A stretch of 64,000 nt of DNA from Escherichia phage HY126, in sequence record PP658200.1; one strand, written 5' to 3'. Positions 6,496-45,478 of this stretch are shown in pieces (the first letter of the stretch is position 1; the number at the start of each line of letters is the position of its first letter). Under the pieces are notes generated by a model. That model ran no database searches. It was not told the origin of the DNA and worked only from the letters and a program-made list of their open reading frames with translations. Both the position numbers and the translations under genes were made by a program.

Positions 6496-6499
6496 TTTG

Positions 6500-31467: not shown

Positions 31468-33281
31468 TGGTGTTTAACCCTATGCATGATTTCTTTATTT
31501 TTGCCGAGATTAAATCCGCGTTCGTTAGGATTTCCCAAATAACCACAAGTTCTTCTTATTGTGTTCATCTTTTTAGGGTCAGTTTCTCCACAAATAGAAC
31601 AAACAAATCCGTTTTCAGTAGGAGTCATTTCATGGGTACTTCCACATGTAAAACATTTATCTACTGGCATATTAACACCAAAATAATCTAAATGTTGTGC
31701 AGCATAATCCCACACGGCCTCAAGACCTTTTAGGTTATTTTTCATATCAGGAAGTTCAACATAAGAAATGTGACCGCCTGTCGCAATGAAATGATATGGG
31801 GCTTCGCGAGAAATCTTTTCAAACGGAGTAATATTTTCTTCTACTGAAACATGGAAACTATTAGTGTACCAGCCTTTATCAGTAACATCTTTTACACTTC
31901 CATATTTTTCGGTATCAAGTTTACAGAAGCGATAACAAAGGTTTTCAGCAGGAGTAGAATACAAACTAAAAGCAAAACCAGTTCTTTCAGTCCACTGCTT
32001 AAGACGAGCATTCATTTTAGTCAAAATTTCTTGCCCAATATCACGACCGACAAGAATATTCAATTCGTGAATACCAATGTATCCTAAGGACACTGAACTT
32101 CTGCCGTTTTTAAATAACTCAATTATATCGTCATCAGGTTTAAGACGAACCCCGAATGCACCTTCTTGGTAAAGAATAGGAGCAACAGTAGCTTTAACTC
32201 CTTTTAAGGAACTAATTCTACACATCAATGCTTCAAAACATAAATCCATTCGCTCATTGAATAATTCAGTAAATTTCTGTTCATTGAACTGTGTTCCAAT
32301 ATAAGAATCTAGCGCAATACGAGGAAGATTCAGTGTTACAACACCAAGATTATTACGTCCATCAAGAATTTCATTACCAGTCGAATCTTTCCATACGCTC
32401 AAGAAACTACGGCAGCCCATTGGAGAAACTGGAACTGAAGAACCGGTGATAGCTTTATTATTCTTAACTGAAATAATATCAGGATACATTCTTTTGCTTG
32501 CACATTCTAAAGCAAGCTGCTTAATATCATAATTCGGATCGTCTTTATAAAGATTAACACCTTCTTCAACGAACATAACAAGTTTAGGGAAAATAGGAGT
32601 TATCCCATCACGACCGAGACCTTTAATACGTTTTTTCAGAATTGCTTTCTGAATCATTCGTTCAGTCCAGTCAGTTCCCGTGCCAAATGTAATTGTTACA
32701 AAAGGCGTTTGCCCGTTTGAACTAAAGAGAGTATTTACTTCATACTCATAAGCTTGGAATGCATCGTATACGTCTTTTTCTGTTTTAGATTGAGCATAAT
32801 TCGGTGCATCGGTGATTTGCCATTTTTCTGCATCCTCGATATGTTTTGCATAGGTGCGTTTAACATAAGGAGAAAGTACTTTATCTACATTCGCAAAAGT
32901 CGTTCCACCATATTGATGAGAAGCAACTTGTGCAGTAATTTGCGCCATAATTGCAGTAGCAACACCAATTGATTTAGGTGTTTCGATCTGCGCATTACCA
33001 AGCTTAAACCCGTTCTCAAGCATTCCTTTTAAATCTACTAAACAGCAATTAGTAAATGGAAGAGCAGGGGAATAATCAATATCATGAAAATGGATAATTC
33101 CACTTTCATGCGCTTTCATAATAAAAGACGGGACCATATTTTTGGCAATGTGCTTAGACACAATACCAGCCATAAGGTCCCGTTGAGTTGGAAAAACACG
33201 AGAATCTTTATTAGCATTCTCGTTCAAAAGATCTTTATTAGTTTTACGAATTAATCCTTCAATTTCTTTTTCAATTTTCAT
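31464..33281 (-). CDS. nrdD: anaerobic ribonucleoside-triphosphate reductase NrdD
   Basis: 605 aa; C-terminal zinc ribbon CFTCG…CSICG and glycyl-radical motif RTCGYLG. Confidence 0.95.
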   Translation of the reverse strand: MKIEKEIEGLIRKTNKDLLNENANKDSRVFPTQRDLMAGIVSKHIAKNMVPSFIMKAHESGIIHFHDIDYSPALPFTNCCLVDLKGMLENGFKLGNAQIETPKSIGVATAIMAQITAQVASHQYGGTTFANVDKVLSPYVKRTYAKHIEDAEKWQITDAPNYAQSKTEKDVYDAFQAYEYEVNTLFSSNGQTPFVTITFGTGTDWTERMIQKAILKKRIKGLGRDGITPIFPKLVMFVEEGVNLYKDDPNYDIKQLALECASKRMYPDIISVKNNKAITGSSVPVSPMGCRSFLSVWKDSTGNEILDGRNNLGVVTLNLPRIALDSYIGTQFNEQKFTELFNERMDLCFEALMCRISSLKGVKATVAPILYQEGAFGVRLKPDDDIIELFKNGRSSVSLGYIGIHELNILVGRDIGQEILTKMNARLKQWTERTGFAFSLYSTPAENLCYRFCKLDTEKYGSVKDVTDKGWYTNSFHVSVEENITPFEKISREAPYHFIATGGHISYVELPDMKNNLKGLEAVWDYAAQHLDYFGVNMPVDKCFTCGSTHEMTPTENGFVCSICGETDPKKMNTIRRTCGYLGNPNERGFNLGKNKEIMHRVKHQ

Positions 33282-33751
33282 TTTAAACTCTTTCTAAGCT
33301 GCTTTTTGAATGAAGCTATTAATTGTGTTTTAGTATCAGATTCATTATATTCAAATCCTCTTTGAAGCATCTCGGCCATCATTTCCTCTTTACCTAGTCT
33401 TGAGAACTCTTTAGTTTTGTCTGGAACAAAATTAGGATGGATATTATTATCAGAATAATCTTGTTTCAAATAAGCAAGAAGAGCTTCAAGCCATTCGAGG
33501 TAGTTGACATCACGGCCTTTAAGACCGGAACGGTTGAACTTATGCTTCATTTGACCTTCTGCTGCGTTGCACAGATTACAGAGTAACCCACGAACTCTAC
33601 CTGCTTTTGGCCCGTTTAATTCGTGGTCGTGGTCAAGATGGTTACCTTGAACATCAGGGTCTAATTCACGGTGGCAAATAGGACACTTACCATTCTGTGC
33701 ATCATAAAATTTTTGTTTTTCTTCTTTGTATAATTTGCCAGATAATAACAT
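33278..33751 (-). CDS. 49: endonuclease VII gp49 (Holliday junction resolvase)
   Basis: 157 aa; near-identical to T4 gp49 as recalled (MLLSGKLYKEEKQKFYDAQNGKCPIC…HLDHDHELNGPKAGRVRGLLCNLCN…). Confidence 0.9.
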   Translation of the reverse strand: MLLSGKLYKEEKQKFYDAQNGKCPICHRELDPDVQGNHLDHDHELNGPKAGRVRGLLCNLCNAAEGQMKHKFNRSGLKGRDVNYLEWLEALLAYLKQDYSDNNIHPNFVPDKTKEFSRLGKEEMMAEMLQRGFEYNESDTKTQLIASFKKQLRKSLK

Positions 33752-33779
33752 AATAAACCCTTACCATATTAGATAAGGG

Positions 33780-33787
33780 TATTTATA
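33780..33787 (-). promoter_or_regulatory. T4 late promoter TATAAATA (gene 49)
   Basis: Exact TATAAATA on minus strand about 30 nt upstream of gene 49 ATG. Confidence 0.6.
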
Positions 33788-33789
33788 AT

Positions 33790-33969
33790 TTAATAAATGT
33801 TATAAAAGTCACGATGGAAACGTTTGTATTGGCGAATCATTCTTTTAGTAGGACGTGTTACCGAAATGATTGAAGTCCTCATGTTCGGATTGTTTGGAGC
33901 ACCAATTATAACAAATTTCCAAGATTTTTGACCGTTTGTTCTTTCGCCAAAAAATAATGCAGTTTTCAT
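33790..33969 (-). CDS. small basic protein, VRPTKR-motif family (paralog a; 59 aa)
   Basis: Translated by eye: …SWKFVIIGAPNNPNMRTSIISVTRPTKRMIRQYKRFHRDFYNIY; shares the C-terminal motif with ORFs at 34394-34564 and 5776-5988. Confidence 0.4.
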   Translation of the reverse strand: MKTALFFGERTNGQKSWKFVIIGAPNNPNMRTSIISVTRPTKRMIRQYKRFHRDFYNIY

Positions 33970-33978
33970 AATAAGCCC

Positions 33979-34392
33979 TTAACTTAAACGTCTTTCTAAA
34001 TATTCAATGTATTCCGCTGCGGCTTGCATCAGATTACCTTCATAACCGTCATTATTTTCTTGGGCGGCTAATTTAGCTAAAGCATAAGAAATACGTTCAC
34101 CTTCGAATTCGCCAAGTTCACCATCACAAACTACTTGGTCAATTTCTTCGAGTTCATCTATTGAATGGGATTCCCAGAAGCACCAAAGAGAAGTATCACG
34201 GTCATAGATGCAAAGTTTCTCACCTGTGTTCAACATCACTTCGATAATGCCATGGTCGCCATAACCATCTTCGGTAGTAGTACCAATTACCTTGATGATC
34301 GTATCTTTCTTTAATTCAGGAAACTTATCTTGGAGTTCTTCGTCTTCTTTAACAATCTTGAACCATTTACCGCGAGTTTCAGAAATATTCAT
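33979..34392 (-). CDS. hypothetical acidic protein (pin region)
   Basis: Start refined to MNISETRGKW; lies where T4 carries pin but identity not verified. Confidence 0.5.
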   Translation of the reverse strand: MNISETRGKWFKIVKEDEELQDKFPELKKDTIIKVIGTTTEDGYGDHGIIEVMLNTGEKLCIYDRDTSLWCFWESHSIDELEEIDQVVCDGELGEFEGERISYALAKLAAQENNDGYEGNLMQAAAEYIEYLERRLS

Positions 34393-34393
34393 A

Positions 34394-34564
34394 TCAATAT
34401 TCTCTATAAAAGTTACGATGGGAACGTTTAGCTTTGCGAAGCTGACGTTTAGTAGGACGAACTGTAAATGGTTGTCCAGAGAAAAAATTCGGATCGGTTT
34501 TAATAAGCAAATACCAATCATGCTTGCCATTTTTTAATAAACGGTACAATAATTTAACTTGCAT
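34394..34564 (-). CDS. small basic protein, VRPTKRQ-motif family (paralog b)
   Basis: Start refined to MQVKLLYRL; C-terminus FTVRPTKRQLRKAKRSHRNFYREY. Confidence 0.45.
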   Translation of the reverse strand: MQVKLLYRLLKNGKHDWYLLIKTDPNFFSGQPFTVRPTKRQLRKAKRSHRNFYREY

Positions 34565-34692
34565 AATAATCTCTTCCCATTTCCATATCAATTAATTCAT
34601 TTATTGAAGGTTCATCATAACACGTTTCTTCGTCATTGTAAACTGTTTCGACGTCTGGCTCGACTGTCTCCCATCGAGCCGAATACCACGGT

Positions 34693-35049
34693 TTAACCCC
34701 GGAGTTTATTGAGCTCTTCATAATCAATCCAGGATTCTAGTCCGGATGGCAGGTCACATTCAATGTTCCACAGAAGCTCTTCAATGGCTTGCAGGCGATT
34801 ATATTCTTCAACGGTAATGGTAACCATTGGTGCAACCGGTTCTGCCTTTTTAACCATCATATCGTTCATCAGGACGTAAAGGTCATCACGAACGACAGTG
34901 TCGTTCCAACCCCATGATTTGGCTTCGTAAGCTAATGATGAAGGGAGCACATTTAAAACTTCAATAATAGTTGGAGCATCAGGACCAAGTTCATTGGCAC
35001 AAACTTCGTATACATCTTGGAAATCTTTAAGATTTAATGAATATGTCAT
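34693..35049 (-). CDS. hypothetical acidic protein (118 aa)
   Basis: Minus ORF, ATGA-coupled to nrdC. Confidence 0.55.
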   Translation of the reverse strand: MTYSLNLKDFQDVYEVCANELGPDAPTIIEVLNVLPSSLAYEAKSWGWNDTVVRDDLYVLMNDMMVKKAEPVAPMVTITVEEYNRLQAIEELLWNIECDLPSGLESWIDYEELNKLRG

Positions 35050-35309
35050 TTAAAATATTCTCGTAGTTGGTCAAAGCCACCGATCGAAGTTCCATCAGGA
35101 GCAAACACTTGAGGCATAGTCAATCCAACTTGTGATTCACGACCAAGCTTAACCAGAAGCTCAGCAATTTTCTCATCATCGAACACACCTTTTTCTGGCA
35201 TAACATTAATGAATTCGAATGGTTGTTTCTTAACAGTCAGCAATCGTTTCGCATTATCGCAATAAATGCATTTATGAATAGTAGAGTCATACCCGTACAC
35301 TTTAAACAT
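35046..35309 (-). CDS. nrdC: thioredoxin/glutaredoxin NrdC
   Basis: Near-identical to T4 NrdC as recalled (MFKVYGYDS.IHKC.YCDNAKRLL…); start refined to MFKVYGYD. Confidence 0.9.
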   Translation of the reverse strand: MFKVYGYDSTIHKCIYCDNAKRLLTVKKQPFEFINVMPEKGVFDDEKIAELLVKLGRESQVGLTMPQVFAPDGTSIGGFDQLREYFK

Positions 35310-35715
35310 TATTTTTCCTTTCATCGATTAAATATGCAATGCCAAATACAATACATGTAATAAAACCTGTGATACAGATAGAAACCAACAACACTGTACC
35401 AAAGAACCAAATCAAGTTATCTTTAGTAGTTTGTTTGATATCCATCTCACGAATTTCTATAGCTATCGTATCACCTTTATTCAGAAGCGTATAAAACGAT
35501 GGCGATACACGCCTGTCAAAAACTCGTCCTTGCTCATCTTTATAGACTGCAATAAATTCTAATTTAGAATATTTTCCTGTAGATTGGCCTGAGATTAATT
35601 CCACTACCTCCACAGGAATTACTTTAGTTTCCATGTAAGTATTCTGGCTGTTCCAAATGAATGGAATAATAGCAAAAACTAAAGCTGCGATAAAACAACG
35701 AAGGCTATATCTCAT
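35302..35715 (-). CDS. membrane protein (137 aa)
   Basis: N- and C-terminal hydrophobic helices. Confidence 0.55.
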   Translation of the reverse strand: MRYSLRCFIAALVFAIIPFIWNSQNTYMETKVIPVEVVELISGQSTGKYSKLEFIAVYKDEQGRVFDRRVSPSFYTLLNKGDTIAIEIREMDIKQTTKDNLIWFFGTVLLVSICITGFITCIVFGIAYLIDERKNNV

Positions 35716-36020
35716 TATAATGTTCTCTCAAATTTGTGGAAGCATTTACGGCATTTCAATTTCAAGTTATCAGTGGTCCAGTTAACCAGTTGGACTTGGA
35801 TAGTTCCACATTCCGGGCACGGATGTTTTGCTGCCGATTTGGCAGCATTTTCACGTCGTTCAACCATTTTCATTATTTCGTTCCATGCCGGAGGAACGAA
35901 CTCTTCTTCACCGTGGATTTTATCTCGCTGAACAAATTCAATCTTTGAACTATCGTCAATAAACTTAACCAAGCCGTGATTAGTGCTCATATCAATATCC
36001 TCTAAAAGACGTAGTTTCAT
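35715..36020 (-). CDS. zinc-ribbon protein (101 aa)
   Basis: CPECG…CRKC four-Cys motif. Confidence 0.55.
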   Translation of the reverse strand: MKLRLLEDIDMSTNHGLVKFIDDSSKIEFVQRDKIHGEEEFVPPAWNEIMKMVERRENAAKSAAKHPCPECGTIQVQLVNWTTDNLKLKCRKCFHKFERTL

Positions 36021-36694
36021 TATAAAACCTCAATGGCATTTCGTAAACCATCAGCTTTTGCATTCAGAGCTTTTAATGATTTAGTTTGTTCTGCAATCTG
36101 GGCTTCGACTTCTTTCAGGCGAGATTTGAGATATTCGCGTTCTTCTCTTAAGTTATCAACTTTTTCTGCTTTAGGCTCTTTAATAGGCTTATACTCGTTA
36201 GGGTTCTTCAACTTAATTTGAATGCGAGAACTGTATAACATTGAACCATTATCTTCGGTTTCATCATACATTTCTACCACGTCCATGATTCTTAACATCA
36301 TGCGAAGTTTATAAGACAGCGAACGAATGGTTTTGTTGTGCTTATTAATTTCTTCGGCTTTCATGGTACCGAGATTACGTGAGTAGTAATAAGGAACCTG
36401 GATATCAATTGATAATGATGCGGTACCATTACCTGTTGGTTTGAACACTGCAGTAACCCAATCTTTAGCATGAACTGTATTTGTACGATCATCGCCACCT
36501 GTGAATAATTTACGTGAATGTTTAAAAAGCATATTCACTTGGTTATTGAATTCACAAGCAAATTTATCAGCAAATTTAGTTTCAGGAATGGTAGATAACC
36601 AATCAGCCAAATGAGTCTTTTTAACATCATTAACAATAGTGAATTCAACCAAATCAGTTTTAGATGTCACAGATTTAATAAAGCTCGGCTTCAT
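36020..36694 (-). CDS. coiled-coil protein, first of three tandem paralogs (possibly N-terminally longer)
   Basis: Track ORF from first ATG; reading frame stays open upstream to about 36966 where SD GAGGAAAATATT is followed by ACG rather than ATG; C-terminal coiled coil. Confidence 0.55.
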   Translation of the reverse strand: MKPSFIKSVTSKTDLVEFTIVNDVKKTHLADWLSTIPETKFADKFACEFNNQVNMLFKHSRKLFTGGDDRTNTVHAKDWVTAVFKPTGNGTASLSIDIQVPYYYSRNLGTMKAEEINKHNKTIRSLSYKLRMMLRIMDVVEMYDETEDNGSMLYSSRIQIKLKNPNEYKPIKEPKAEKVDNLREEREYLKSRLKEVEAQIAEQTKSLKALNAKADGLRNAIEVL

Positions 36695-36992
36695 AAAGTT
36701 TTTAATGTTATCGCGAGCTACAGTAGAAGATAATAAACGAGAACGTTTGAACCAATGAAGCAGTGTCCCTAATGAATGAGAATACGCATTCTGAGTATCT
36801 TTACAGATATGATTTTCTTGGCCTGTGTATGTACCAAAATCGCGAAGAATACCACTTACTACAACTCGGTGTGGAACATCAAATCCTAATGAACCAGAAG
36901 CACGTTGGGCATGAACGTTAGCGATAAGACCTGCAAAATAATCAATGTAATGTGAACGTGTCGTAATATTTTCCTCTCGTTAAGATAGAAAG

Positions 36993-37022
36993 ATTATACT
37001 CCAACCATCCTTGGTTGTAAAC
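36993..37022 (-). promoter_or_regulatory. conserved hairpin-promoter element (copy 1)
   Basis: Minus strand GTTTAC-AACCA-AGGA-TGGTT-GGAG-TATAAT; 27-bp identical to the copy at 37989. Confidence 0.5.
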
Positions 37023-37026
37023 TGAT

Positions 37027-37962
37027 TTATGATTTTAATGCATTCATTGCGTTAAAAAGTTTAGAGTACTGCAACTGGAGCTTGGTAACTACTTGTTGAG
37101 CATCACGAAGCTTAGCTTGTGCTTTGTCAAGTTCAACAGACAGTTGGTCCACAGTGGCTTTGATTTGATTATAATAGTAATCTTCGGCAGGAAGAAGACC
37201 GTTAGAGATTTCCAGTTTAGTCGACGGTGAAGTGTATATAGATGGAGCAGTAAAATATGCACCTTGAACTTCAGCATTGCCAATTGGGGTTGTAGTAATT
37301 GACGCTTCGAACGTTGCATTTTCCTTTTTAAGATTTTGATAGTATTCAGAGTCTTTGTGCCACCATGGCGCAGGAACCTTTTTACCAATAGATACACGAG
37401 CCTGGATAGCGATATGGCCCTTATTCTTGATAGGGTTGATAATATTAAGCTCACGAGAATAAATTGCTTTAATCTGGTGGATATTATCACCTAAAACTTC
37501 CAACGCTTGATGGAATACACGAGCAACGTTATCATTCTTAGGTTTATACGTAAGAGTGAACTCGTTCTCACTGATAACCATGATTTCTAACTTATCGTAA
37601 GTATATTTCAAATGTTTCATGTTAATTGCTTGAGGACGAATACGAGAAGCAATGGCCATCAGATTGTTAAGGTTATTCCTGAACTGCTTAGCGAAATATT
37701 GCCCTTCACCGCCAATACAAAAATTACGAAGTTTCTGTTTGGCTAATAAACGGCTGAACTCACCATTTTTAATGAACTCTTTAACGGGTGTGTTAGTAAC
37801 GCATTCAAATTGAGTAAACTTACGAGAATTAATCCCATAATATGAACAGATTTCCTCAATCTCTTCAGGAGTCTTTACAGGCATACGGATAGGATTAGGT
37901 CCTGGGGTATATGCGTTCGAGGTAAATTCTTTGATAAGTTCTCTACGTGTAATAGAAGCCAT
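37027..37962 (-). CDS. coiled-coil protein, second tandem paralog (311 aa)
   Basis: Minus ORF starting MASITRR with GAGGAA SD; C-terminal coiled coil; same upstream element as its neighbours. Confidence 0.6.
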   Translation of the reverse strand: MASITRRELIKEFTSNAYTPGPNPIRMPVKTPEEIEEICSYYGINSRKFTQFECVTNTPVKEFIKNGEFSRLLAKQKLRNFCIGGEGQYFAKQFRNNLNNLMAIASRIRPQAINMKHLKYTYDKLEIMVISENEFTLTYKPKNDNVARVFHQALEVLGDNIHQIKAIYSRELNIINPIKNKGHIAIQARVSIGKKVPAPWWHKDSEYYQNLKKENATFEASITTTPIGNAEVQGAYFTAPSIYTSPSTKLEISNGLLPAEDYYYNQIKATVDQLSVELDKAQAKLRDAQQVVTKLQLQYSKLFNAMNALKS

Positions 37963-37988
37963 TTTATATTCCTCATGTTGAAAAATTT

Positions 37989-38018
37989 ATTATACTCCAA
38001 CCATCCTTGGTTGTACAT
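37989..38018 (-). promoter_or_regulatory. conserved hairpin-promoter element (copy 2)
   Basis: Identical 27-mer (…ACAACCAAGGATGGTTGGAGTATAAT) upstream of 37027-37962. Confidence 0.5.
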
Positions 38019-39013
38019 CATTCCTTAAGAAGTTTTACTACCTGAATAAGATTAGCTCGTTCTGTTTTATTTTTACTGTTTAAGCCTGCTAATCGTGAGA
38101 TTTCATCGTCAGTCTGTTGAATAGTTACATTAAGTTCGTTAATCAAAGCTTCAAAGTATTTGATTTGCTCAGCATGTTTTGATTCGAATTTCTGAACCGG
38201 AATAACGTCTTGGTTTAGTTCATCAATAAGGTCTTTAAGAGCATCTTCTTGGTTGATATCATATTCAACTTCTTTTATTTCTTCAACGAGCTCGTCTTTA
38301 TATCTAACGTCTTTTAGTCCTGGTGCTGGTCCTGAAATCTCTTCTTTAAGAGTACAAACATATCCAATACGGTATCCAATGCTGTCTCGCTTGATATCAA
38401 CTTCGTCAATAAATCCACAATGTTTAAGACCAGAGCCGATTAGGTCAAAATATCCTTGACGTCGTCCTTCAAACGTTACACGAACTACTAAGACAGTTTT
38501 ACCTGCGACCTTTTGAAGCTCACATTTATAAAAGTCTGTTGAACCTGAATAACGTGGATGAGTTTTAAAGTTCATCTGACGATCTAGGCCCATTTGTAAG
38601 CGTGCTGATACGGCCATAAAACGTGTTTGGTTCTCGTTAAGATGTGCAACAATCCATTTCAAAGGCATTTTACACTGTTCACGGCCGAACAAATCAGTAC
38701 GTCCTAGATTACGCAGGATGTTGTTAGAGTTAATCATCGACAGAACGTTAAGTTTATTCAGCGCGCTGAAGATTCCATCAGCCATTGATTTTCCGTAACC
38801 TTTACACGCTTTAATAAGCGCTCGCGGTAGATTAGTATAGATTTCAGATGGCATATGAAAATCAAATTTACTAGTCAGTAATTGATGAACTTGGATAGCA
38901 ATTTGCTCATAATTAAGTGCTCTGCGATCATTATGGTCTTTAAACCACACTTTAATCTGTGAAGCACATAAACCGTTAATTTCATGTTTTACCGCATCAG
39001 ATGTAATGCTCAT
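38018..39013 (-). CDS. coiled-coil protein, third tandem paralog (331 aa)
   Basis: Minus ORF starting MSITSD; C-terminal coiled coil; upstream variant element ACCCA-AGGA-TGGGT with compensatory base changes. Confidence 0.6.
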   Translation of the reverse strand: MSITSDAVKHEINGLCASQIKVWFKDHNDRRALNYEQIAIQVHQLLTSKFDFHMPSEIYTNLPRALIKACKGYGKSMADGIFSALNKLNVLSMINSNNILRNLGRTDLFGREQCKMPLKWIVAHLNENQTRFMAVSARLQMGLDRQMNFKTHPRYSGSTDFYKCELQKVAGKTVLVVRVTFEGRRQGYFDLIGSGLKHCGFIDEVDIKRDSIGYRIGYVCTLKEEISGPAPGLKDVRYKDELVEEIKEVEYDINQEDALKDLIDELNQDVIPVQKFESKHAEQIKYFEALINELNVTIQQTDDEISRLAGLNSKNKTERANLIQVVKLLKE

Positions 39014-39075
39014 AACTATTTCCTCAGATTGAATTGGAACTCAAAACCATTATAACCCATCCTTGGGTAAAGCGT

Positions 39076-39603
39076 TTATGCGTGAACCGTCTTTAAACGT
39101 TCTTCAAATTTCCGAAGAGTACTAATACGTTCTGATTTCTGTTTTGTATAGTTTGCAATACGTTCTGAAGTGAGAGCGTATCGTTCATTTACTGTTTCTT
39201 TCATGAAGTCAGGGATTTCACGAGAAGCTTTAATTTCATCAAACTTATCGAGTACTGCCTGGTCTTCAGCGATTAAATTTTCGTACATCTCGATATCTTT
39301 CTTGATAAACTCGATATCTTCCTGGGTTACTTTGGATAAACGAGATGCTTTATCCTTTTTGTACTGCTCGTTAGTTTCACGAGACCAGAATAATGTACGT
39401 TTTTTGTTAGTGTTTTTATAGACTTCCACAATTCCAACTGAATCGATGATAGCAATCCAATTCCAGCGAGATTTGAAAATCTGACCTCCGTCCACGGTAA
39501 TCTCGTTACCATAAGCAACGTCATTAAAGAACTTGCTTTGTGCTTCAGATTTAAATTTACCGTCGTTATAATTTACCAGGTTGAAAATATCTTTAGCGTT
39601 CAT
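39076..39603 (-). CDS. hypothetical protein (175 aa)
   Basis: Minus ORF with GGAGGTAAAAC SD and upstream early promoter. Confidence 0.55.
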   Translation of the reverse strand: MNAKDIFNLVNYNDGKFKSEAQSKFFNDVAYGNEITVDGGQIFKSRWNWIAIIDSVGIVEVYKNTNKKRTLFWSRETNEQYKKDKASRLSKVTQEDIEFIKKDIEMYENLIAEDQAVLDKFDEIKASREIPDFMKETVNERYALTSERIANYTKQKSERISTLRKFEERLKTVHA

Positions 39604-39629
39604 GTTTTACCTCCAGTAGTTGATAGGTC

Positions 39630-39659
39630 TATAATATCATAACCATAGACCTTGTAAAC
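39630..39659 (-). promoter_or_regulatory. T4-early-like promoter
   Basis: Minus strand GTTTAC - 17 nt - TATTAT; -10 flanked by inverted repeat AGGTCTAT / ATAGACCT. Confidence 0.5.
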
Positions 39660-39661
39660 AA

Positions 39662-39949
39662 CTAAAAGAAACTTTTTTCGGTATTTTTTCCACTGAACCA
39701 AACAGACTTCGGGATTTTTTGTAATTTTTCAGATTTAAGTTTCTCTTCCTGTTCTTTCTTATATACAGCCTTGTCGTACTGGAGCATCTCTATGGCATTC
39801 TTTTGTAGACGGTCTAAGGTAATTAAGGCTTTAGTTTTTCCTTTCAAGGAAGAGTCCTGGCGAACCTCCTCGCTATATTGCATTGTAGAACTAACCATAC
39901 GATGAGCATAGAGTTCTACTGCGGCTTTAATTTTTTGCATAAAATCCAT
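39662..39949 (-). CDS. hypothetical basic coiled-coil protein (95 aa)
   Basis: Minus ORF; no motif. Confidence 0.5.
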   Translation of the reverse strand: MDFMQKIKAAVELYAHRMVSSTMQYSEEVRQDSSLKGKTKALITLDRLQKNAIEMLQYDKAVYKKEQEEKLKSEKLQKIPKSVWFSGKNTEKSFF

Positions 39950-40087
39950 AACATATCCTCTTTGATTTGTACATCATTATTTTTAAATATTTCTATGCCC
40001 TCAGTAGGTTCCTGGTGTCCTTCTTTGAGGTAAGCCATATGATTATTCATCTTTATGGCTTTTGTTACCTCAGAACTTCCTATAAGC

Positions 40088-41089
40088 TTATTTCAGTAAA
40101 GTTACTTCGGAGATTTCTTCCCAACCATCTTTATCAGTTGAAATAAAATCTGCTACATAAAGAGCCGTACGTAACGATACATTGCGAAGACGAGATACGT
40201 TAGCCTTCATCCAGGACAATGCTTTATACGTTTCTGCATCCGTCAGACCACGTTTCTGCATCATGTCAGTAGATAATATTACATCTTCAACTCGAACCAT
40301 AATCTCTTCATTAGAGTGTACTCCAAGGTCGAGATACACTGAACGAGATACTAAAGCTTGAAGGTGTGGGGCAAGTTTCGAACCGCGTTCTAACTCTTTA
40401 TCGATATCAACGTTTGTAATGAAAACGATAGTACCTTCAAACTCAAATTCTTTATCAATACCCTTATCATCGAGATAAGATGACGCAGTGCTCCAGCAAA
40501 CTTTGCGTTTATCTCCAGTATCTAATGCTGCTTTAAGAAGGTTCAAGATGTCCATATCCGAGAATACGTCAACGTCGTCGATTAAGAGAACGCTGTCTGC
40601 ATCACGGTTGAGCCAAAGTTGTTCGTAAAGGCCAATACCGGAGATTTTACCATTAATGCTTTTGTATTTGATGAAACCGTTATCATTAGCATTATTAAGT
40701 GCTTTATCCAGAGAATACGTCTTACCAATACCAGCTGCACCTGAAATAATGAGTGAACGAATTTTGCCATCGATAATGCCATTCGTCATCATGTTCATTA
40801 CTTTAAAGCGTTTGTTGATACGAGTTTTCATATCTTCAGTGCTTTCAACAACTGCAACTGGTGACGTCTCAACTCCTTCCATTACGATGTCTGATTTGAA
40901 GACCCATACTCCACGTTCAGAACCATCAATCATAACGAAAATTTTACCATCACCTAAGTGGGAACATTCAGGATTAAGCTTTGCCGGGAACCAGGTCTTT
41001 GTGGCAACATAAGAACCAGAGATTTCGTTATTACGATAGATACCTTTTTTGATTTGAACGTTGAACATTTTATTCTCCAATTTACTCAT
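40088..41089 (-). CDS. P-loop ATPase (333 aa)
   Basis: Walker A SGAAGIGKT and Walker B-like LLIDDVD. Confidence 0.65.
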   Translation of the reverse strand: MSKLENKMFNVQIKKGIYRNNEISGSYVATKTWFPAKLNPECSHLGDGKIFVMIDGSERGVWVFKSDIVMEGVETSPVAVVESTEDMKTRINKRFKVMNMMTNGIIDGKIRSLIISGAAGIGKTYSLDKALNNANDNGFIKYKSINGKISGIGLYEQLWLNRDADSVLLIDDVDVFSDMDILNLLKAALDTGDKRKVCWSTASSYLDDKGIDKEFEFEGTIVFITNVDIDKELERGSKLAPHLQALVSRSVYLDLGVHSNEEIMVRVEDVILSTDMMQKRGLTDAETYKALSWMKANVSRLRNVSLRTALYVADFISTDKDGWEEISEVTLLK

Positions 41090-41185
41090 TTCGTTTCGAT
41101 AGGTCTATAATAACATATCCTAAAAGCATGTACACCACTTTTTTAAATATTTTAACCCCCTAAAGGGACCCGAAGGTCCCCACAT

Positions 41186-41467
41186 TTACTTATCGCACTT
41201 AGCAACATAATTAGGCATATCACAGAATACGGAGCGAGTAACTACTCGGCCCTTTGACCATGCTTCAGTTGCTTGTCCGGCGGTGCTATTAATATAGCTT
41301 GATCTAATGTTCTCAATACCCTGAGAATGTGATGCATTTACCGAACCATTAGAAGGCCCAGAAGACTGGTTACCACCAGCTCCTGCACTACCGCCAGCAG
41401 CACCCGTGGTAGCACCAACAGAGAACGCCATCATTACTGCGAATAAACCAATTACTAATTTTTTCAT
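41186..41467 (-). CDS. secreted Gly/Ser-rich protein (93 aa)
   Basis: Signal peptide, low-complexity Gly/Ser region, two C-terminal Cys; TATAAATA late promoter upstream. Confidence 0.55.
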   Translation of the reverse strand: MKKLVIGLFAVMMAFSVGATTGAAGGSAGAGGNQSSGPSNGSVNASHSQGIENIRSSYINSTAGQATEAWSKGRVVTRSVFCDMPNYVAKCDK

Positions 41468-41498
41468 ATTTACCTCAAGTTAATGGTTATTTATCTAC

Positions 41499-42488
41499 TT
41501 ATTTATAGTAAGAATTATGATTTTCGAGATAGACTTGTTCAAGGAAGTCATCCCAGAAACTCATATCTACTTTTTGTTGCATACCGTTCTTGGCAGCTTG
41601 TTCTGACGCATGTTCAACTTGGTCAACGATATCTTCTAGGAATTCTTGTACAGTTTTAAACGTATGTTTACCAAGCTTAACATCGAGAATAAATGGAGCA
41701 TCCTGAAGTGGGTAAACCAGGTCGCCGGTTTTGTAAATTTCCAATAATTGAAGTCCACCACGACATGCATGACTCAATGCTTTCCAGTCAATACCTTCGT
41801 TAGCTTCTGCCTTACGAGCACGTTCGCCATAGTTCTCTTCCAGTTTAACCAGGATGGCATTGAACTCTTTATTGGTTAACGTATCTTGGAATTTACGGTC
41901 TAACAGATTATAGAATGTTTGCTTACCTGTTTTCTCGTTTTCGGTTTCAACCCATGAAGCAAATTCACCTACAGGCAGAACATTCTTCATATGTGATAAA
42001 CGAATTACTGCACCGTTATCAAAGTATTGTCCCCATTCATTAGAACGTTTAAGGGCTTGACGAAGAACAGCCAGTCGAGAACCCTTGACACCATATTTAG
42101 AAGCTTGCTTACGGACATACCCTAAATAAGATTTCATGTTAGTAGTATAGAAACGAGACCTGTTATCTTGAATATACTTCCATACATCAGGCAAATCAGA
42201 TTTAACTACTAGACTTTGTGGAGTGTGAAGCATATCTAATGCGACGGTTTCACCGTCTGCAGCTAGTTTAAAGAAATATTTGAGACTATACAACTCATGG
42301 TCCACGTCGTCTTTTGTGTTCTTAGAAGCAGTGTTGTTAGTGTTCTTGCTCATGTGTTCTTTAACGTTACCGGTCAAGATATCACGAGCATGAGGGACAT
42401 AAATTTCTTTAAAATCGACGTCAGATTCAGGAGTAGACGTTCCATAAAGGTGGCTACCAAAGTAAGCCTTAACAATCGTTTTCATCAT
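41499..42488 (-). CDS. polymerase-beta-superfamily nucleotidyltransferase-fold protein
   Basis: N-terminal GSHLYGTSTPESDVDF resembles the GS…DxD minimal nucleotidyltransferase motif; substrate unknown. Confidence 0.65.
   Translation of the reverse strand: MMKTIVKAYFGSHLYGTSTPESDVDFKEIYVPHARDILTGNVKEHMSKNTNNTASKNTKDDVDHELYSLKYFFKLAADGETVALDMLHTPQSLVVKSDLPDVWKYIQDNRSRFYTTNMKSYLGYVRKQASKYGVKGSRLAVLRQALKRSNEWGQYFDNGAVIRLSHMKNVLPVGEFASWVETENEKTGKQTFYNLLDRKFQDTLTNKEFNAILVKLEENYGERARKAEANEGIDWKALSHACRGGLQLLEIYKTGDLVYPLQDAPFILDVKLGKHTFKTVQEFLEDIVDQVEHASEQAAKNGMQQKVDMSFWDDFLEQVYLENHNSYYK
41500..41507 (-). promoter_or_regulatory. T4 late promoter TATAAATA
   Basis: Exact TATAAATA on minus strand about 33 nt upstream of ATG at 41467, inside the 3' end of the preceding gene. 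Confidence 0.5.
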
Positions 42489-42958
42489 TTAGCCTTATAT
42501 TCAAGAGTAGGACAGACTTTTTCTTTACGAGCTTTAAGGTATTCACCTATTAATGATTTCTTACGTTCAATAGGCTCAAGTCCATTTTTAATTCGTTCTT
42601 GGTTTTGCGCAATGAGCTCAATTTCTTTATAATATTTTCTGTCGTTATATTTGTCTAACAACCAAGACGGACCAATTACCGCCCCGACAGCAATAAGAAC
42701 CATTACTGATATTGTTAAAATGCCTATACCAATTGAAGCAGGAACTAATGTCCATAAACTACTAAAGACAAAGAATTTAGTTAAAATTTCTTGGCCAATG
42801 ATTGCGGCACCTGCTAAAGTTGCAAATCCAACAATTGAAACAGCTAATACCGGAATAAACGTTTTCCAAAAATAAGCACATAGCGTTTTTGGACGATTCC
42901 ACGTACTATTGAACGCGGCATAAATTTTAAAGTGCCAAGAGTTTTCATTGATAATCAT
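42485..42958 (-). CDS. membrane protein (157 aa)
   Basis: Multiple hydrophobic helices; ATGA-coupled to downstream gene. Confidence 0.55.
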   Translation of the reverse strand: MIINENSWHFKIYAAFNSTWNRPKTLCAYFWKTFIPVLAVSIVGFATLAGAAIIGQEILTKFFVFSSLWTLVPASIGIGILTISVMVLIAVGAVIGPSWLLDKYNDRKYYKEIELIAQNQERIKNGLEPIERKKSLIGEYLKARKEKVCPTLEYKAK

Positions 42959-42967
42959 AATAATTCC

Positions 42968-43498
42968 TTATTTCAAAGTCGGGATAATAGAATCAAGATA
43001 AGCTTTAAGAGCAACTGCTTCATCTTTGTCTAATGTAATGATATGTTGACGAAGGTCATCAATTTGACGAATAACTACGACATCACCATCTTCATAAGAA
43101 GGATTAACGCTCAGGACTGTTGTATAGTCAGGGCGGTCCTGATTTGTAATAAAAGCATTACGACATTTAGCCCATTGAAGTTTGGCCTTTTTGACTGTTT
43201 CAGATTCCATGAATTCTTTCACTTTAGTGACGAATGTTTTCCAATTATTAATAGAAAAACATTCGTCTTCAGTTTCGATATTAACCCCACTATAAAGTCC
43301 GTGATAAAAACGAACTTGAAGGTCTTCATCAATGTTAATTACAGATGCATGGCCTGGCGGATTGAGTTTCAAAATCTTGTCTAGTTCCATAGGAAGAATA
43401 GTAACAGCATCATCTTCTTGCGTCAGAACGTAAGCATAACCGCGTTTTTCAATACATAAATCACCGAACAACTCTGTTGTTTCAATTACAGTTTTCAT
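42968..43498 (-). CDS. hypothetical protein (about 176 aa)
   Basis: Start refined to MKTVIETTEL (track start is a TTG). Confidence 0.55.
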   Translation of the reverse strand: MKTVIETTELFGDLCIEKRGYAYVLTQEDDAVTILPMELDKILKLNPPGHASVINIDEDLQVRFYHGLYSGVNIETEDECFSINNWKTFVTKVKEFMESETVKKAKLQWAKCRNAFITNQDRPDYTTVLSVNPSYEDGDVVVIRQIDDLRQHIITLDKDEAVALKAYLDSIIPTLK

Positions 43499-43499
43499 A

Positions 43500-43679
43500 T
43501 TATTCACCAATTAAAGTTTCAACAAAATTCACCAAAGCATTCTGGCAAGCGTCAACCTGATTTTCATAAAAGTCTTCGTTATCATTTACCGCATGATAAG
43601 CGACATCATTCAAATCTGAATCGGCTTCACGTAAGTCACGGATAAGGTCCATCAATTTATTAGCTTGTTCACGTGTCAT
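43500..43679 (-). CDS. small acidic protein (59 aa, below track cutoff)
   Basis: Translated by eye (MTREQANKLMDLIRDLREADSDLNDVAYHAVNDNEDFYEN…); preceded by a 36-aa ORF with GGAGAA SD and AATGA coupling. Confidence 0.35.
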   Translation of the reverse strand: MTREQANKLMDLIRDLREADSDLNDVAYHAVNDNEDFYENQVDACQNALVNFVETLIGE

Positions 43680-43813
43680 TTTACCATACTCGTTTCAATA
43701 AGATTCACTATGCCGTTTACCATGTTATAAGTAAACATCGGATAATTGTATTGTACTACAACATAAGCGATAAGCAAAAGTTTCATTTTGTTCTCCGTTT
43801 GTTTTGATAGGAC

Positions 43814-43844
43814 TACTATAACATAGTCCTACCAAGATGTAAAC
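43814..43844 (-). promoter_or_regulatory. T4-early-like promoter with palindromic GATAGGACTA element
   Basis: Minus strand GTTTAC - 18 nt - TATAGT; -10 flanked by TAGGACTA / TAGTCCTA. Confidence 0.5.
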
Positions 43845-44080
43845 TACCGATTGTGTTTTAAATGTTGATAAAGTTCTTCAACTTGTTTAGGGTCCAAAAC
43901 AATTAAGTCATTTTCTTGACGAAGATAAATCCATCCCTTATCCCCAGGGCCATTTTTACAAAACATCACCGTCGTCATATCGTCATCTTCAGCGCTTTCA
44001 GGTAAAAGTTCAAGTACACCGTCTTCAGATTTTCCAGTATAATCGTAAAGCATAATATCCTCACATAATCTCGTTAACAT
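43844..44080 (-). CDS. hypothetical protein (78 aa)
   Basis: Minus ORF; no motif. Confidence 0.5.
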   Translation of the reverse strand: MLTRLCEDIMLYDYTGKSEDGVLELLPESAEDDDMTTVMFCKNGPGDKGWIYLRQENDLIVLDPKQVEELYQHLKHNR

Positions 44081-44240
44081 ACATTTGCAATTCGGTGTGG
44101 GCTTCAGCCATCTTTTTCATAGCTCTGTTAATGTCGATGTCTCTATCTTCGCAACCATGAGCATTTTCCCAATCAGATACCGCATTAGCGTACTCTTCAA
44201 TCAAAAACATTAACTTAGAAATTTTTTCTTTACGTGTCAT
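44061..44240 (-). CDS. hypothetical protein (about 59 aa)
   Basis: Start refined to MTRKEKISKL with GAGGAGAA SD. Confidence 0.45.
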   Translation of the reverse strand: MTRKEKISKLMFLIEEYANAVSDWENAHGCEDRDIDINRAMKKMAEAHTELQMYVNEIM

Positions 44241-44267
44241 AACGTTCTCCTCTAGTAAGTAAGGACT

Positions 44268-44296
44268 ACTATAACACAACCTGAGGAGAAGTAAAC
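44268..44296 (-). promoter_or_regulatory. early promoter with SD-complementary -35-proximal box
   Basis: GTTTAC-TTCTCCTC-…TATAGT…-GAGGAGAA-CGTTATG; the 8-nt box after -35 is the exact complement of the SD. Confidence 0.55.
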
Positions 44297-44309
44297 TGCT
44301 AAATGCCAA

Positions 44310-44336
44310 AAAGCCCCAACCATAAGGAAGGGGCTA
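44310..44336 (-). terminator. intrinsic terminator downstream of rI
   Basis: Minus strand GCCCC…GGGGC hairpin followed by U5; near-duplicate of the terminator at 60725-60752. Confidence 0.65.
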
Positions 44337-44341
44337 GTAAA

Positions 44342-44644
44342 TTAGATAGATGTAGGCTCTAATTTTATTTTCATGAACTCGGCAAATTGTCTGGCGGTTT
44401 TTATGCCTTGTTCATGACATTCAAATGCATCATCACAGGGGCTATTTTTGTAATGCTTTGCCATATACTTATAGAATTTTTCAGAATTCTCGACATTTTG
44501 AATTTCAAACAAAGTATATACGTTTTTAATCCCTGATTCCATAAAGTTATCAAAATATGGGTCGATATGTGCAGTACCAACGATAGGAGTTGTTGCTGCA
44601 AAAAACCCCAGCATCGCTATGACAGCTATCGCTCTTAAGGCCAT
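44342..44644 (-). CDS. rI: lysis-inhibition regulator RI (antiholin)
   Basis: 100 aa; signal-anchor plus …D.FMESGI..VY.LFE…S.FEC… matches T4 RI as recalled. Confidence 0.85.
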   Translation of the reverse strand: MALRAIAVIAMLGFFAATTPIVGTAHIDPYFDNFMESGIKNVYTLFEIQNVENSEKFYKYMAKHYKNSPCDDAFECHEQGIKTARQFAEFMKIKLEPTSI

Positions 44645-44656
44645 ATAGGCCTCCTG

Positions 44657-44869
44657 TTAATTTTGGCCAGTATTTATTTTTCGCCTTTGGACGGCCTTAA
44701 CATCTGTGAGGTATTTTTCCAGCTTGCGCTTGCGTGTATAATCAGCTTTAGAACCAGTTTGACGGATATCCTCGTTTAAATGAGAAATAGAATGTCCTAA
44801 TTCTCTTCGGATTTCATCCAATTGGGTTACAGTAAGATTACGAAGTTGTCTTTCGTTTAATTGCTGCAT
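44657..44869 (-). CDS. hypothetical protein (70 aa, rI.1 position)
   Basis: Minus ORF between tk and rI. Confidence 0.5.
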
Positions 44870-44896
44870 ATATACCTCTTGGTTAGATATTAGTAT

Positions 44897-45478
44897 TTAT
44901 AACAACCCTGTCAAATCATTCCAATGCTTCCGGCATAATGACACATATCTATCAGTATCACCAATTTCAATTTGACTGCCATCTGTAATTGGAAGTCCGT
45001 CTTCCGTGACTCTAGCTACCATTGTGGCCTTTTTACCACAATGACAGACACCTTTAAGTTCAACAAGCTTATCGGCAATAGCCATTAATGCTTGAGAACC
45101 TTCAAATAGATTACCTTTAAAATCTGTTCGTAGTCCATATGCCATTACCGGCACATTGTATACGTCAACAATACGACTAAGTTGATACACCTTTTCAGTA
45201 GTTAAGAATTGAGCTTCGTCAACAAATACACAATGAATATCCTTTTGTGCTGCAGCCCATTTATAGAATTCAAAGATATCCATGTCTTTTGTAATTATAT
45301 TGGCGTCCTGACGAATACCAATACGAGAGACTATTTCACCTTTTGAATCGCGAGTATCAATAGCAGGTTTAAGAACTAATACACCCATTCCGCGTTCTTT
45401 ATAATTATGCGCAGCAGTCAAAAGAGAAGCAGATTTTCCAGCATTCATTGCTGCATAAGTAAAAATTAAACTCGCCAT
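44897..45478 (-). CDS. tk: thymidine kinase
   Basis: 193 aa; Walker A AMNAGKS, VDEAQF, C-terminal zinc motif CHCG…CRKH. Confidence 0.95.
   Translation of the reverse strand: MASLIFTYAAMNAGKSASLLTAAHNYKERGMGVLVLKPAIDTRDSKGEIVSRIGIRQDANIITKDMDIFEFYKWAAAQKDIHCVFVDEAQFLTTEKVYQLSRIVDVYNVPVMAYGLRTDFKGNLFEGSQALMAIADKLVELKGVCHCGKKATMVARVTEDGLPITDGSQIEIGDTDRYVSLCRKHWNDLTGLL

Follow-up and report, generated by a model that had tools for sequence, protein, structure and literature searches.

Three promoter cassettes with an embedded hairpin in the nrdC-mobD region of phage HY126

The accessory genes nrdC.6, nrdC.5 and nrdC.3 of Escherichia phage HY126 (PP658200.1, of which a stretch of 64,000 nt was analyzed; "the window" denotes this whole stretch, and all HY126 coordinates are positions within it) are each preceded by an intergenic cassette in which a small hairpin is embedded in a predicted promoter. 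Judged by their sequences, these cassettes belong to an already known class, i.e., the PeSL elements (early promoter plus stem-loop) of T4-type phages, all sequence-level hallmarks of which could be recognized in them. New here are a clean polymorphism in which one cassette and its gene are present or absent among close relatives, a covarying stem that presents an invariant loop resembling the binding sites of the host protein CsrA, and the recurrent inactivation of nrdC.3, of which the ACG found in place of the nrdC.3 start codon in HY126 is plausibly an instance. Leaving aside whether CsrA is the protein involved, we consider the account given below to be probable. The cassettes and genes concerned are the following:

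36993-37021, minus strand: PeSL cassette before nrdC.3, with –35 box TTTACA (37016-37021), hairpin CAACCA-AGGA-TGGTTG (37002-37017), GGAG (36999-37002) and –10 box TATAAT (36993-36998).
37989-38017, minus strand: PeSL cassette before nrdC.5, with –35 box TGTACA (38012-38017), hairpin CAACCA-AGGA-TGGTTG (37998-38013), GGAG (37995-37998) and –10 box TATAAT (37989-37994).
39049-39076, minus strand: middle-promoter-type cassette before nrdC.6, with MotA-like box AACGCTTTA (39068-39076), hairpin ACCCA-AGGA-TGGGT (39055-39068) and –10 box TATAAT (39049-39054).
38018-39013, minus strand: nrdC.6 homologue of 331 aa, of unknown function, taken from the list of open reading frames (ORFs; PHROG 2257, 2e-127; precomputed Pfam assignment PF26899).
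37027-37962, minus strand: nrdC.5 homologue of 311 aa, DUF7235 (Pfam PF23882, 1.2e-112; PHROG family 2351).
36020-36964, minus strand: nrdC.3 homologue of 314 codons (ACG at 36962-36964, stop codon at 36020-36022), matching PHROG 1435 over residues 2-314.

By sequence, HY126 is a Mosigvirus (i.e., an RB69/JS09-like T4-type coliphage), and the 3.7-kb stretch around the three ORFs shares 96-99.4% DNA identity with many Mosigvirus genomes, the closest being that of phage DCP548 (99.4%). The locus corresponds to the nrdC-mobD hyperplastic (accessory early-gene) region, all genes of which are encoded on the minus strand here, and the names nrdC.6, nrdC.5 and nrdC.3 were transferred from the JS09, RB69 and T4 annotations. 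A preliminary description of this DNA, made from the sequence alone, had placed ORFs at 36020-36694, 37027-37962 and 38018-39013, and these coordinates were found to be correct.

PeSLs were defined in phages RB49 and phi1 by Arbiol et al. 2010 (PMC2839356) as elements in which an upstream stop codon is followed by an AT-rich stretch, a sigma-70-like early promoter, a stem-loop, a Shine-Dalgarno sequence (SD) and a start codon, the commonest subclass having the stem-loop between the –35 box and the –10 box. They are concentrated in hyperplastic regions, where their mutual recombination deletes, inserts or replaces ORFs (PMC2839356). Mini-circles arising during infection count as a further mark of the class. 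Comeau et al. 2014 subsequently widened the class to T4 and PST (TTTACW-N17-TAYWAT), named the forms with a MotA box PmSLs, and noted degraded copies with intact stem-loops at ~47-51 kb of PST (PMC4122927), which is the same region as that of the HY126 cassettes. All three HY126 elements are located in 55-62-nt intergenic gaps of the nrdC cluster, show the same order of parts as PeSLs, are repeated beside non-essential ORFs, and carry their stem-loop in the promoter spacer (37002-37017, 37998-38013 and 39055-39068). Moreover, the nrdC.3 and nrdC.5 copies contain a consensus-type early promoter, and the nrdC.6 copy is of the MotA-box (PmSL) type.

Two cassettes are predicted early promoters and the third is an orthologue of T4 PnrdC.7

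As had been pointed out in the preliminary description, a 27-mer (TACAACCAAGGATGGTTGGAGTATAAT) is identical between the nrdC.3 and nrdC.5 cassettes (36993-37019 and 37989-38015), and this identity was found to stop exactly at both ends of the repeat. The two cassettes can be regarded as near-identical predicted sigma-70 early promoters: in a scan of 33000-45000 (12 kb), the nrdC.3 cassette was the best sigma-70 match (11/12 consensus positions, 17-nt spacer), and the nrdC.5 cassette was among the best (10/12, 17-nt spacer). The –35 box of the latter (TGTACA) is weak, which counts against the promoter reading. The spacers of the other GTTTAC...TATAAT promoters in the window proved unrelated to these cassettes, which ruled out the spacer sequence as a general feature of T4-type early promoters, and a literature search for the core CCAAGGATGG together with "bacteriophage T4" found nothing.

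The third element, which had been taken to be the same as the other two, turned out to be of a different build, as it contains neither GTTTAC nor GGAG and has 13 nt rather than 17-18 nt between its upstream box and TATAAT. Specifically, it reads AAACGCTTTA-CCCAAGGATGGGT-TATAAT, i.e., a MotA box at 13 bp from a good –10 box, as expected by sequence for a T4 middle promoter (consensus (a/t)(a/t)(a/t)TGCTTtA, 12+/-1 bp from the –10 box; PMC2988021). The single mismatch in its MotA box (C for T) is the same one as in T4 PnrdC.7, an experimentally identified MotA-dependent middle promoter with its start site at 53325 (Hinton 2010, Table 1, PMC2988021). Both promoters follow the nrdC.8 stop codon and share CGCTTTA, a 12-13 bp spacer and TATAATGGTT, which identifies the nrdC.6 cassette as a positional and sequence orthologue of PnrdC.7. 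They differ in that the HY126 cassette precedes nrdC.6 instead of nrdC.7 (which has moved to 35302-35715), and in that homology between HY126 and T4 ends ~15 nt past the –10 box.

In T4 coordinates, the PnrdC.7 hairpin spans 53336-53349 and the –10 box 53332-53337, and the mapped start lies 7 nt downstream of the –10 box and thus also downstream of the hairpin. From this geometry, none of the three HY126 hairpins is expected to be part of the transcript of its own promoter.

A conserved hairpin structure presents an invariant loop

Selection on the hairpin structure had been proposed from the three HY126 copies, and the evidence for it became stronger once T4 and other Mosigvirus loci were included. 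Since a scan of IMG/VR with the NrdC.3 profile returned only 7 loci, diversity was sampled from the GenBank phage collection. Five different stems were found in T4 and Mosigvirus (TACCA/TGGTA, ACCCA/TGGGT, CCACA/TGTGG, AGCCA/TGGCT and AACCA/TGGTT), all of them complementary and all surrounding an invariant CA-AGGA. Two of these (AGCCA/TGGCT and AACCA/TGGTT) occur at the orthologous site upstream of nrdC.3 and thus represent a double compensatory difference. When the 4-bp stem was examined in 11 distinct aligned sequences, including imperfect ones, 95.5% of the cells were paired vs. 18-45% in slid controls, and three of the four stem pairs changed on both sides. This covariation sample comprises only five independent lineages, and these were found by looking for hairpins. 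Single-sided stem breaks in some orthologues (TAGCT in L011, TGATA in RB27) count against strict conservation of the structure.

The compensatory stem reported for the nrdC.6 copy (ACCCA-AGGA-TGGGT) indeed forms in HY126, whereas its closing T is polymorphic: of the seven other Mosigvirus loci that include this copy, six have C here and one (S143_2) has A. Given this variable closing position, the hairpin is better described as a 4-bp stem with a hexaloop AAGGA(U/C/A) than as the 5-bp stem that had been proposed. Stem length ranges from 4 to 6 bp in HY126 and amounts to 7-8 bp in T4 PnrdC.7.

Perfect N5-AGGA-N5' hairpins occur in the window only at the three intergenic spots described above, on the gene strand, and a scan of 18 related loci likewise recovered them only at these intergenic positions on the gene strand; none was found on the opposite strand of either the window or the related loci. 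With the looser definition of a 4-bp stem and an ANGGAN loop, five hairpins were seen on the gene strand vs. 1.35 expected from Markov simulations. The hairpin was present in every minimum-free-energy fold of the intergenic RNAs, and the folding z-scores of these 71-77-nt RNAs (–1.25 to +0.85) were not significant, the hairpins being too small for this test. No Rfam family matched within 35000-41500 at an E-value of up to 1. Taken together, sequence comparison indicates that the hairpin is conserved as a structure with the invariant loop AAGGA(U/C/A).

A mini-ORF begins at an AUG within each hairpin's 3' arm, with the SD-like AAGGA directly abutting this AUG (i.e., zero spacing). In the nrdC.6 copy this mini-ORF (39016-39060, minus strand) has 14 codons and stops 2 nt short of the nrdC.6 ATG, those of the nrdC.3 and nrdC.5 copies (36995-37009 and 37991-38005) have 4 codons (MVGV) and end in TATAAT, and those of the T4 copies have 2-9 codons. 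With neither length (2-14 codons) nor sequence conserved, and with an SD-to-AUG spacing of zero, these mini-ORFs were set aside as by-products.

Identical 27-bp repeats mark the gain or loss of nrdC.5

PeSL-type recombination between neighboring cassettes would delete or insert the enclosed ORF, and such an exchange could be recognized among natural relatives of HY126. A synthetic junction, in which the end of nrdC.6 is joined through the 27-mer to the start of nrdC.3, was searched for in related phage records and yielded an uninterrupted full-length match in 21 of the 155, revealing hybrid junctions that lack nrdC.5. The unit lost or gained comprises nrdC.5 plus one cassette (996 bp) and is bounded by the 27-bp identical direct repeats. 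Base by base, phage F2 shows nrdC.6, then a hybrid cassette, then nrdC.3, the hybrid combining the TGTACA side of the nrdC.5 copy with the CTTTCTATC side of the nrdC.3 copy. As a control, a junction was built from the nrdC.6 and nrdC.5 cassettes, which have only ~10 bp in common, and none of 156 records contained it. Consistent with the junction count, nrdC.5 was found in 132 Mosigvirus-type records and nrdC.3 in ~150. These comparisons indicate that the 27-bp repeats act as a crossover or join point, and that the HY126 cassettes resemble PeSLs also in marking the boundaries of indels and replacements, with direct repeats flanking an ORF that is present or absent among close relatives.

Two considerations weigh against reading more into this exchange. 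Deletion and insertion of nrdC.5 are both compatible with the data, and ordinary homologous recombination between repeats needs no special element. Nevertheless, with the unit present in ~132 Mosigviruses and precisely absent from 21, it is an unusually clean natural example of PeSL-type cassette exchange.

HY126 NrdC.5 is only 23% identical to T4 NrdC.5 by BLASTP (E 5e-8), and the T4 protein matches the same family PF23882 at 5e-126. T4 nrdC.5 counteracts the Dsr1 defence, restoring infection of a Dsr1-carrying host (PMC9391042). By family assignment, nrdC.5 of HY126 thus belongs with a T4 member that is an anti-Dsr1 counter-defence gene, and the cassette exchange illustrates how a gene of this kind can be gained or lost without disturbing the expression of its neighbors.

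Gene content at this locus varies across T4, RB69, ACG-C40 and HY126, and the cassettes mark the places where T4 and Mosigvirus gene orders differ, i.e., nrdC.8-cassette-6-cassette-5-cassette-3-2-7 in HY126 vs. nrdC.8-cassette-7-6-5-cassette-4-cassette-3 in T4. No nrdC.4 is present in HY126. The outer neighbors of the three genes in HY126 are the following:

39076-39603, minus strand: nrdC.8, upstream neighbor of nrdC.6.
35715-36020, minus strand: nrdC.2, downstream neighbor of nrdC.3.

The membrane-protein gene nrdC.7 is situated between nrdC.2 and nrdC in HY126 (35302-35715) and in RB69. Its T4 counterpart (T4 locus 8902-9303) immediately follows the PnrdC.7 cassette, with nrdC.8 and nrdC.6 as its neighbors. 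By this comparison, nrdC.7 was relocated and the promoter cassette kept its place.

Possible functions of the hairpin

One function that has been attributed to PeSL stem-loops is termination. A stem-loop of RB49 (PeSL211/210) was cloned in a reporter as a test of termination, and PeSL stem-loops were called effective terminators by the authors of that work. The HY126 hairpins, which directly follow the stop codon of each upstream gene, could accordingly be canonical PeSL attenuators or terminators that insulate the cassette from upstream transcription, with no specific role for the loop sequence. However, RB49 PeSL stem-loops are G/C-rich terminators, whereas the HY126 stems are short (5-6 bp), are not polyG/polyC and lack a U-tract, so that the published role may not transfer to them. 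A terminator scan of 33000-45000 called none of the hairpins, their thermodynamic z-scores are unremarkable, and termination leaves unexplained why the AAGGA loop is invariant in all five variants and the stems change. This combination of an invariant loop AAGGA(U/C/A) with covarying stems, as found in HY126 and T4, has not been described for PeSLs. Moreover, typical T4 terminators nearby look different, such as the GC-rich UUCG hairpin upstream of nrdC.10. A terminator role thus appears to fit the sequences poorly, and we regard it as unlikely.

The nearby hairpin just mentioned (~41165-41181, minus strand) has the sequence GGGGACCTTCGGGTCCC, is followed by TTT, is located upstream of the nrdC.10 promoter, and has the features of a typical T4-type intrinsic terminator.

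That the GGA loop is invariant on a stem that varies suggests that the folded single strand is recognized sequence-specifically, and the known readers of GGA loops in a T4-infected cell are RegB and the host protein CsrA. RegB cuts GGAG/U in early intergenic RNA (PMC3014915), and the loop GGAU and/or the adjacent GGAG might therefore be a RegB cleavage site that uncouples or inactivates an early polycistronic mRNA. By itself, RegB favors GGA that is unpaired and whose fourth nucleotide is constrained, and its sites consist of single-stranded GGAG (rarely GGAU) with the A-rich RAYARAA behind it. The hairpins before nrdC.3 and nrdC.5 are immediately followed on their 3' side by GGAG and then by UAUAAUA, a partial match that shares five of the seven positions of RAYARAA. 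Against cleavage, all 30 intergenic T4 GGAU sequences were tested by Durand 2006 and cuts were found only at 55.2 and motB.2, which (with 28 of the 30 resistant) implies that the T4 hairpin loops upstream of nrdC.3, nrdC.4 and nrdC.7 were resistant. In addition, a RegB/S1 site has to be single-stranded over 11 nt and A-rich on its 3' side, the loops of nine Mosigvirus nrdC.6 copies contain GGAC in six cases and GGAA in one, of which GGAA is very poorly cut and GGAC is no known substrate, and three of the five variants have no GGAG. A RegB site at the loop, where GGAU lies in a hairpin and is followed by GGUUGGA, was consequently set aside as very improbable.

[quoted passage not shown] The related RsmE binds ANGGAN hexaloops, the repeats of CsrB read CAGGA(U/A/C)G, and in glgC a hairpin site tethers a CsrA dimer that bridges to a GGA in the SD (PMC7652899). 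The cassette hairpins resemble such CsrA/RsmA sites in that all copies present GGA in the loop of a short hairpin (4-6 bp in HY126) as the ANGGAN hexaloop AAGGAN with U, C or A as the last base. Of the 12 SELEX positions, the T4 nrdC.4 copy (ACAAGGAUGU) agrees with 10 including ACA, and the HY126 copies agree with 9 (with CCA for ACA). A second GGA occurs in the SD of the three HY126 genes, 34, 36 and 39 nt downstream of the hairpin GGA, as well as in that of T4 nrdC.4.

If, as inferred, transcription from a cassette's own promoter starts downstream of the hairpin, the RNA form of the hairpin would exist only on read-through transcripts from upstream promoters. On such RNA, the hairpin would most likely be a GGA-loop protein-binding site for which host CsrA is the best candidate; CsrA might then bridge the hairpin to the GGA-containing SD 34-39 nt downstream, and expression of the gene would depend on which promoter made the mRNA. 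We propose the predicted binding of CsrA tentatively. More specifically, the hairpin could be an operator, either for host CsrA or for an unknown GGA-loop-binding phage protein, such that read-through mRNA is repressed or stabilized and mRNA from the cassette's own promoter is translated freely, a scheme that for the moment is better called doubtful than likely.

A number of observations weigh against involvement of CsrA. In four of the five stem variants, CCA stands where SELEX has an invariant ACA, the SDs that follow the T4 nrdC.3 and nrdC.7 copies are devoid of GGA, and enrichment of the 8-mer CARGGAHG in the window is only ~2-fold. Among T4-type phages, an SD that contains GGA is in any case common. 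What connects the cassettes with CsrA is the resemblance of their motifs, and a literature search found no paper linking CsrA to T4 mRNAs. The phage hairpin furthermore differs from known CsrA/RsmA sites in being located inside a promoter and hence being absent from the transcript of that promoter.

Control by transcript origin has a precedent in T4 gene e, where a promoter lies inside the DNA encoding an inhibitory RNA structure and the origin of the transcript decides on translation (PMC3014915). Comparably, the HY126 RNA structure would occur only on read-through transcripts, with the nearer promoter starting downstream of the 5' arm. In contrast to gene e, where the hairpin itself sequesters the ribosome-binding site, the HY126 hairpin is positioned ~35 nt upstream of the SD, and control through it would require a trans-acting factor.

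If the proposed binding were true, an accessory cluster with counter-defence-type genes would be controlled by transcript origin and host physiology, linking a global post-transcriptional regulator of the host to phage accessory-gene expression. It would also constitute the first CsrA regulon reported in a T4-type phage and explain what the stem-loop does in at least one PeSL family. From the covarying stem and the invariant loop AAGGA(U/C/A), CsrA binding follows as a prediction that can be tested directly.

A probable start-codon mutation of nrdC.3 in HY126

The preliminary description had further noted that the first frame continues upstream of the annotated ATG at 36694 to an SD followed by ACG, from which it inferred a start-codon mutation or a sequencing error. 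The frame is indeed open as described, being bounded by TAA at 36980-36982, and the gene is longer than annotated (~314 codons; relatives annotate 945-951 nt). It contains 91 further codons upstream of ATG 36694, with no ATG, GTG or TTG among them. An SD (GAGAGGAA) at 36971-36978 is followed by ATT ACG at 36962-36967, of which ATT (36965-36967) is in frame as well. The spacing from ACG to the SD is 8 nt, as for the ATGs of nrdC.5 and nrdC.6, and that from ATT is 5 nt. Comparison with related phages, which the preliminary description had suggested, bore out the mutation, as all relatives inspected have ATG exactly at the position of the ACG. JS09, S143_2, DCP548, pEK20 and F2 read AATATTATGACACGT where HY126 reads AATATTACGACACGT, and over residues 2-314 the extended NrdC.3 is 99.7% identical to the DCP548 protein.

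One canonical start remains in the frame:

36692-36694, minus strand: internal ATG (Met92), the sole canonical start left in the frame, with no SD upstream (AACATTAAAAACTTTATG).

Compared with AUG, codons of the AUU class initiate at ~1-2% in E. coli and those of the class including ACG at 0.1-1%, and sfGFP (superfolder green fluorescent protein) with an ACG start was recovered with N-terminal Met and some Thr. Given such weak initiation at ACG and ATT, and an internal ATG that has no SD, full-length NrdC.3 is expected to be down ~100-fold. The ACG would then be a private T-to-C change that cuts full-length NrdC.3 synthesis to roughly 1% or less.

Alternatively, the ACG might be a sequencing or assembly error in a phage that truly has ATG and a normal nrdC.3. 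The change is the only difference between HY126 and the 12 best records over 131 bp, the ORF is otherwise undamaged, and the ACG allele was encountered in none of 50,697 phage records (55-nt query, every 28-mer spanning the C) and in none of the IMG/VR and JGI metagenome contigs, in which the ATG control pattern was found. That the ACG is a singleton weighs against a genuine allele and makes an error a serious possibility, if not the one we favor. On the other side, a T-to-C transition is an ordinary mutation, 0.6% of positions differ in any case between HY126 and its nearest relative, and at least four other genomes or contigs carry independent natural lesions in this N-terminal region of nrdC.3. 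In a metagenome scaffold, ATG is changed to ATT and codon 6 is TAA; Shigella phage Sf25 lacks 47 bp comprising the SD and the first 13 codons; a low-coverage contig has TAG for CAG; and ACG-C40 has an nrdC.5'-'nrdC.3 deletion fusion, to which the chimeric protein P0033 is similar. Such recurrent lesions indicate that loss of the gene is tolerated and make a real loss-of-expression allele plausible. We therefore prefer to read the ACG as a plausible loss-of-expression allele, and as one of several independent natural knock-outs of a dispensable nrdC.3. In annotation, nrdC.3 of HY126 is best represented as a 314-codon gene with a mutated start rather than as a 224-aa protein, and flagged as a probable expression knock-out.

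In Sf25 (MF327009; locus 995-1030), which lost the nrdC.3 ribosome-binding site and first 13 codons, the hairpin loop has changed from AAGGAT to AAGTAT and GGA is lost. This single case fits a function of the hairpin tied to nrdC.3 expression.

In the chimeric genes, i.e., that of the protein P0033 (299 aa, from a 167-kb contig) and that of phage ACG-C40 (locus 6305-6713), a T4-type NrdC.5 N-terminal part (DUF7235 positions 124-246) continues in frame into NrdC.3, of which the C-terminal half is present. The two parts meet at a short common motif (KFNKVN / EFNNQVN), i.e., these deletions lie inside the coding sequence and not at the cassettes.

The three genes are not detectably homologous

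The three genes had also been described as tandem paralogues. Once the first ORF is extended, the lengths of their products do lie close together (311-331 aa), and all three carry a helix of 40-50 residues with a heptad pattern at the C-terminus. The coiled coil that had been assigned to all three C-termini was well supported for NrdC.3 and NrdC.5 (heptad scores of 0.90 and 1.00, respectively) and weak for NrdC.6 (0.67). A coiled-coil tail by itself is no proof of shared ancestry.

Paralogy was not supported by any sequence test. Pairwise BLASTP among NrdC.3, NrdC.5 and NrdC.6 gave E-values of 0.18-2.8 only, and the proteins fall into three separate PHROGs (1435, 2351 and 2257, respectively) and three separate Pfam families, i.e., PF26897 "Phage_T4_Y04OP" (NrdC.3), PF23882 DUF7235 (NrdC.5) and PF26899 (NrdC.6). 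The pairwise alignments and profile comparisons that the preliminary description had called for thus detected no homology: with hhalign profiles that included the T4 orthologues, the probability was 42% for NrdC.3 vs. NrdC.5 (E 2.6e-4 over ~100 columns), 2.9% for NrdC.3 vs. NrdC.6 and 0.4% for NrdC.5 vs. NrdC.6. Likewise, a search of 1.84 billion representatives with the NrdC.3 hidden Markov model returned five proteins, none of which belonged to the NrdC.5 or NrdC.6 families. The NrdC.3 family is, by its sequence matches, confined to Tequatrovirus and Mosigvirus.

AlphaFold2 models of NrdC.3 (22-sequence alignment; predicted local distance difference test score (pLDDT) of 52.9) and NrdC.5 (14 sequences; pLDDT of 38.5) were too poor for fold comparison. 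The homologues obtained for these alignments were all at least 56% identical for NrdC.3 and at least 84% identical for NrdC.5.

Conceivably, each gene was duplicated along with its upstream hairpin-promoter and then diverged beyond easy recognition. Besides the similar sizes and tails and the hhalign match of NrdC.3 with NrdC.5, T4 offers a model for such an origin in the form of NrdC.3 and NrdC.4, a true paralogue pair (23% identity, common N-terminal motifs, Pfam Phage_T4_Y04OP), each behind its own hairpin cassette. Apart from the negative sequence comparisons above, this origin is contradicted by the distribution of cassettes in T4, where nrdC.5 and nrdC.6 have none and the unrelated membrane-protein gene nrdC.7 has one, which indicates that cassette and gene were not inherited as a unit. 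Tandem paralogy is consequently quite unlikely, and we treat nrdC.6, nrdC.5 and nrdC.3 as accessory genes that by sequence have no detectable homology to each other and should not carry a paralogue label in annotation. As for the individual assignments, HY126 NrdC.6 is 29% identical to T4 NrdC.6 (E 9e-20), and its gene is already named nrdC.6 in the JS09 and RB69 records.

Neighboring genes and a second cassette family

Many GenBank records (e.g., MZ868638 and OR352942) label the whole nrdC.2-nrdC.10 cluster "thioredoxin". None of these cluster proteins matched a thioredoxin or glutaredoxin family in the searches performed here, and the labels look like an annotation error that spread from the nrdC.N gene names. 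The nrdC.10 homologue (40088-41089, minus strand) gave weak matches to the P-loop ATPase families AAA_22 (2e-4), AAA_16 and nSTAND3 and to a helix-turn-helix domain, suggesting that its product may be an NTPase rather than a domain-less protein.

Finally, a second family of repeated promoter cassettes was observed before nrdC.8 (39631-39658, minus strand) and nrdC.10 (41107-41134, minus strand), as well as in RB69 upstream of nrdC.8, nrdC.10 and ORF102. Its members consist of (G/T)TTTACA or TGTACA, a 16-nt spacer and TATTAT, followed by the common downstream stretch TATTATAGACCTATC, of which the T4 counterpart carries a different common version (GGTACTATACAACTATCAACT). The nrdC.8 copy has an inverted repeat of its own across the –10 box (AGGTCTAT...ATAGACCT). 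By its layout, this family is probably a further PeSL subfamily.

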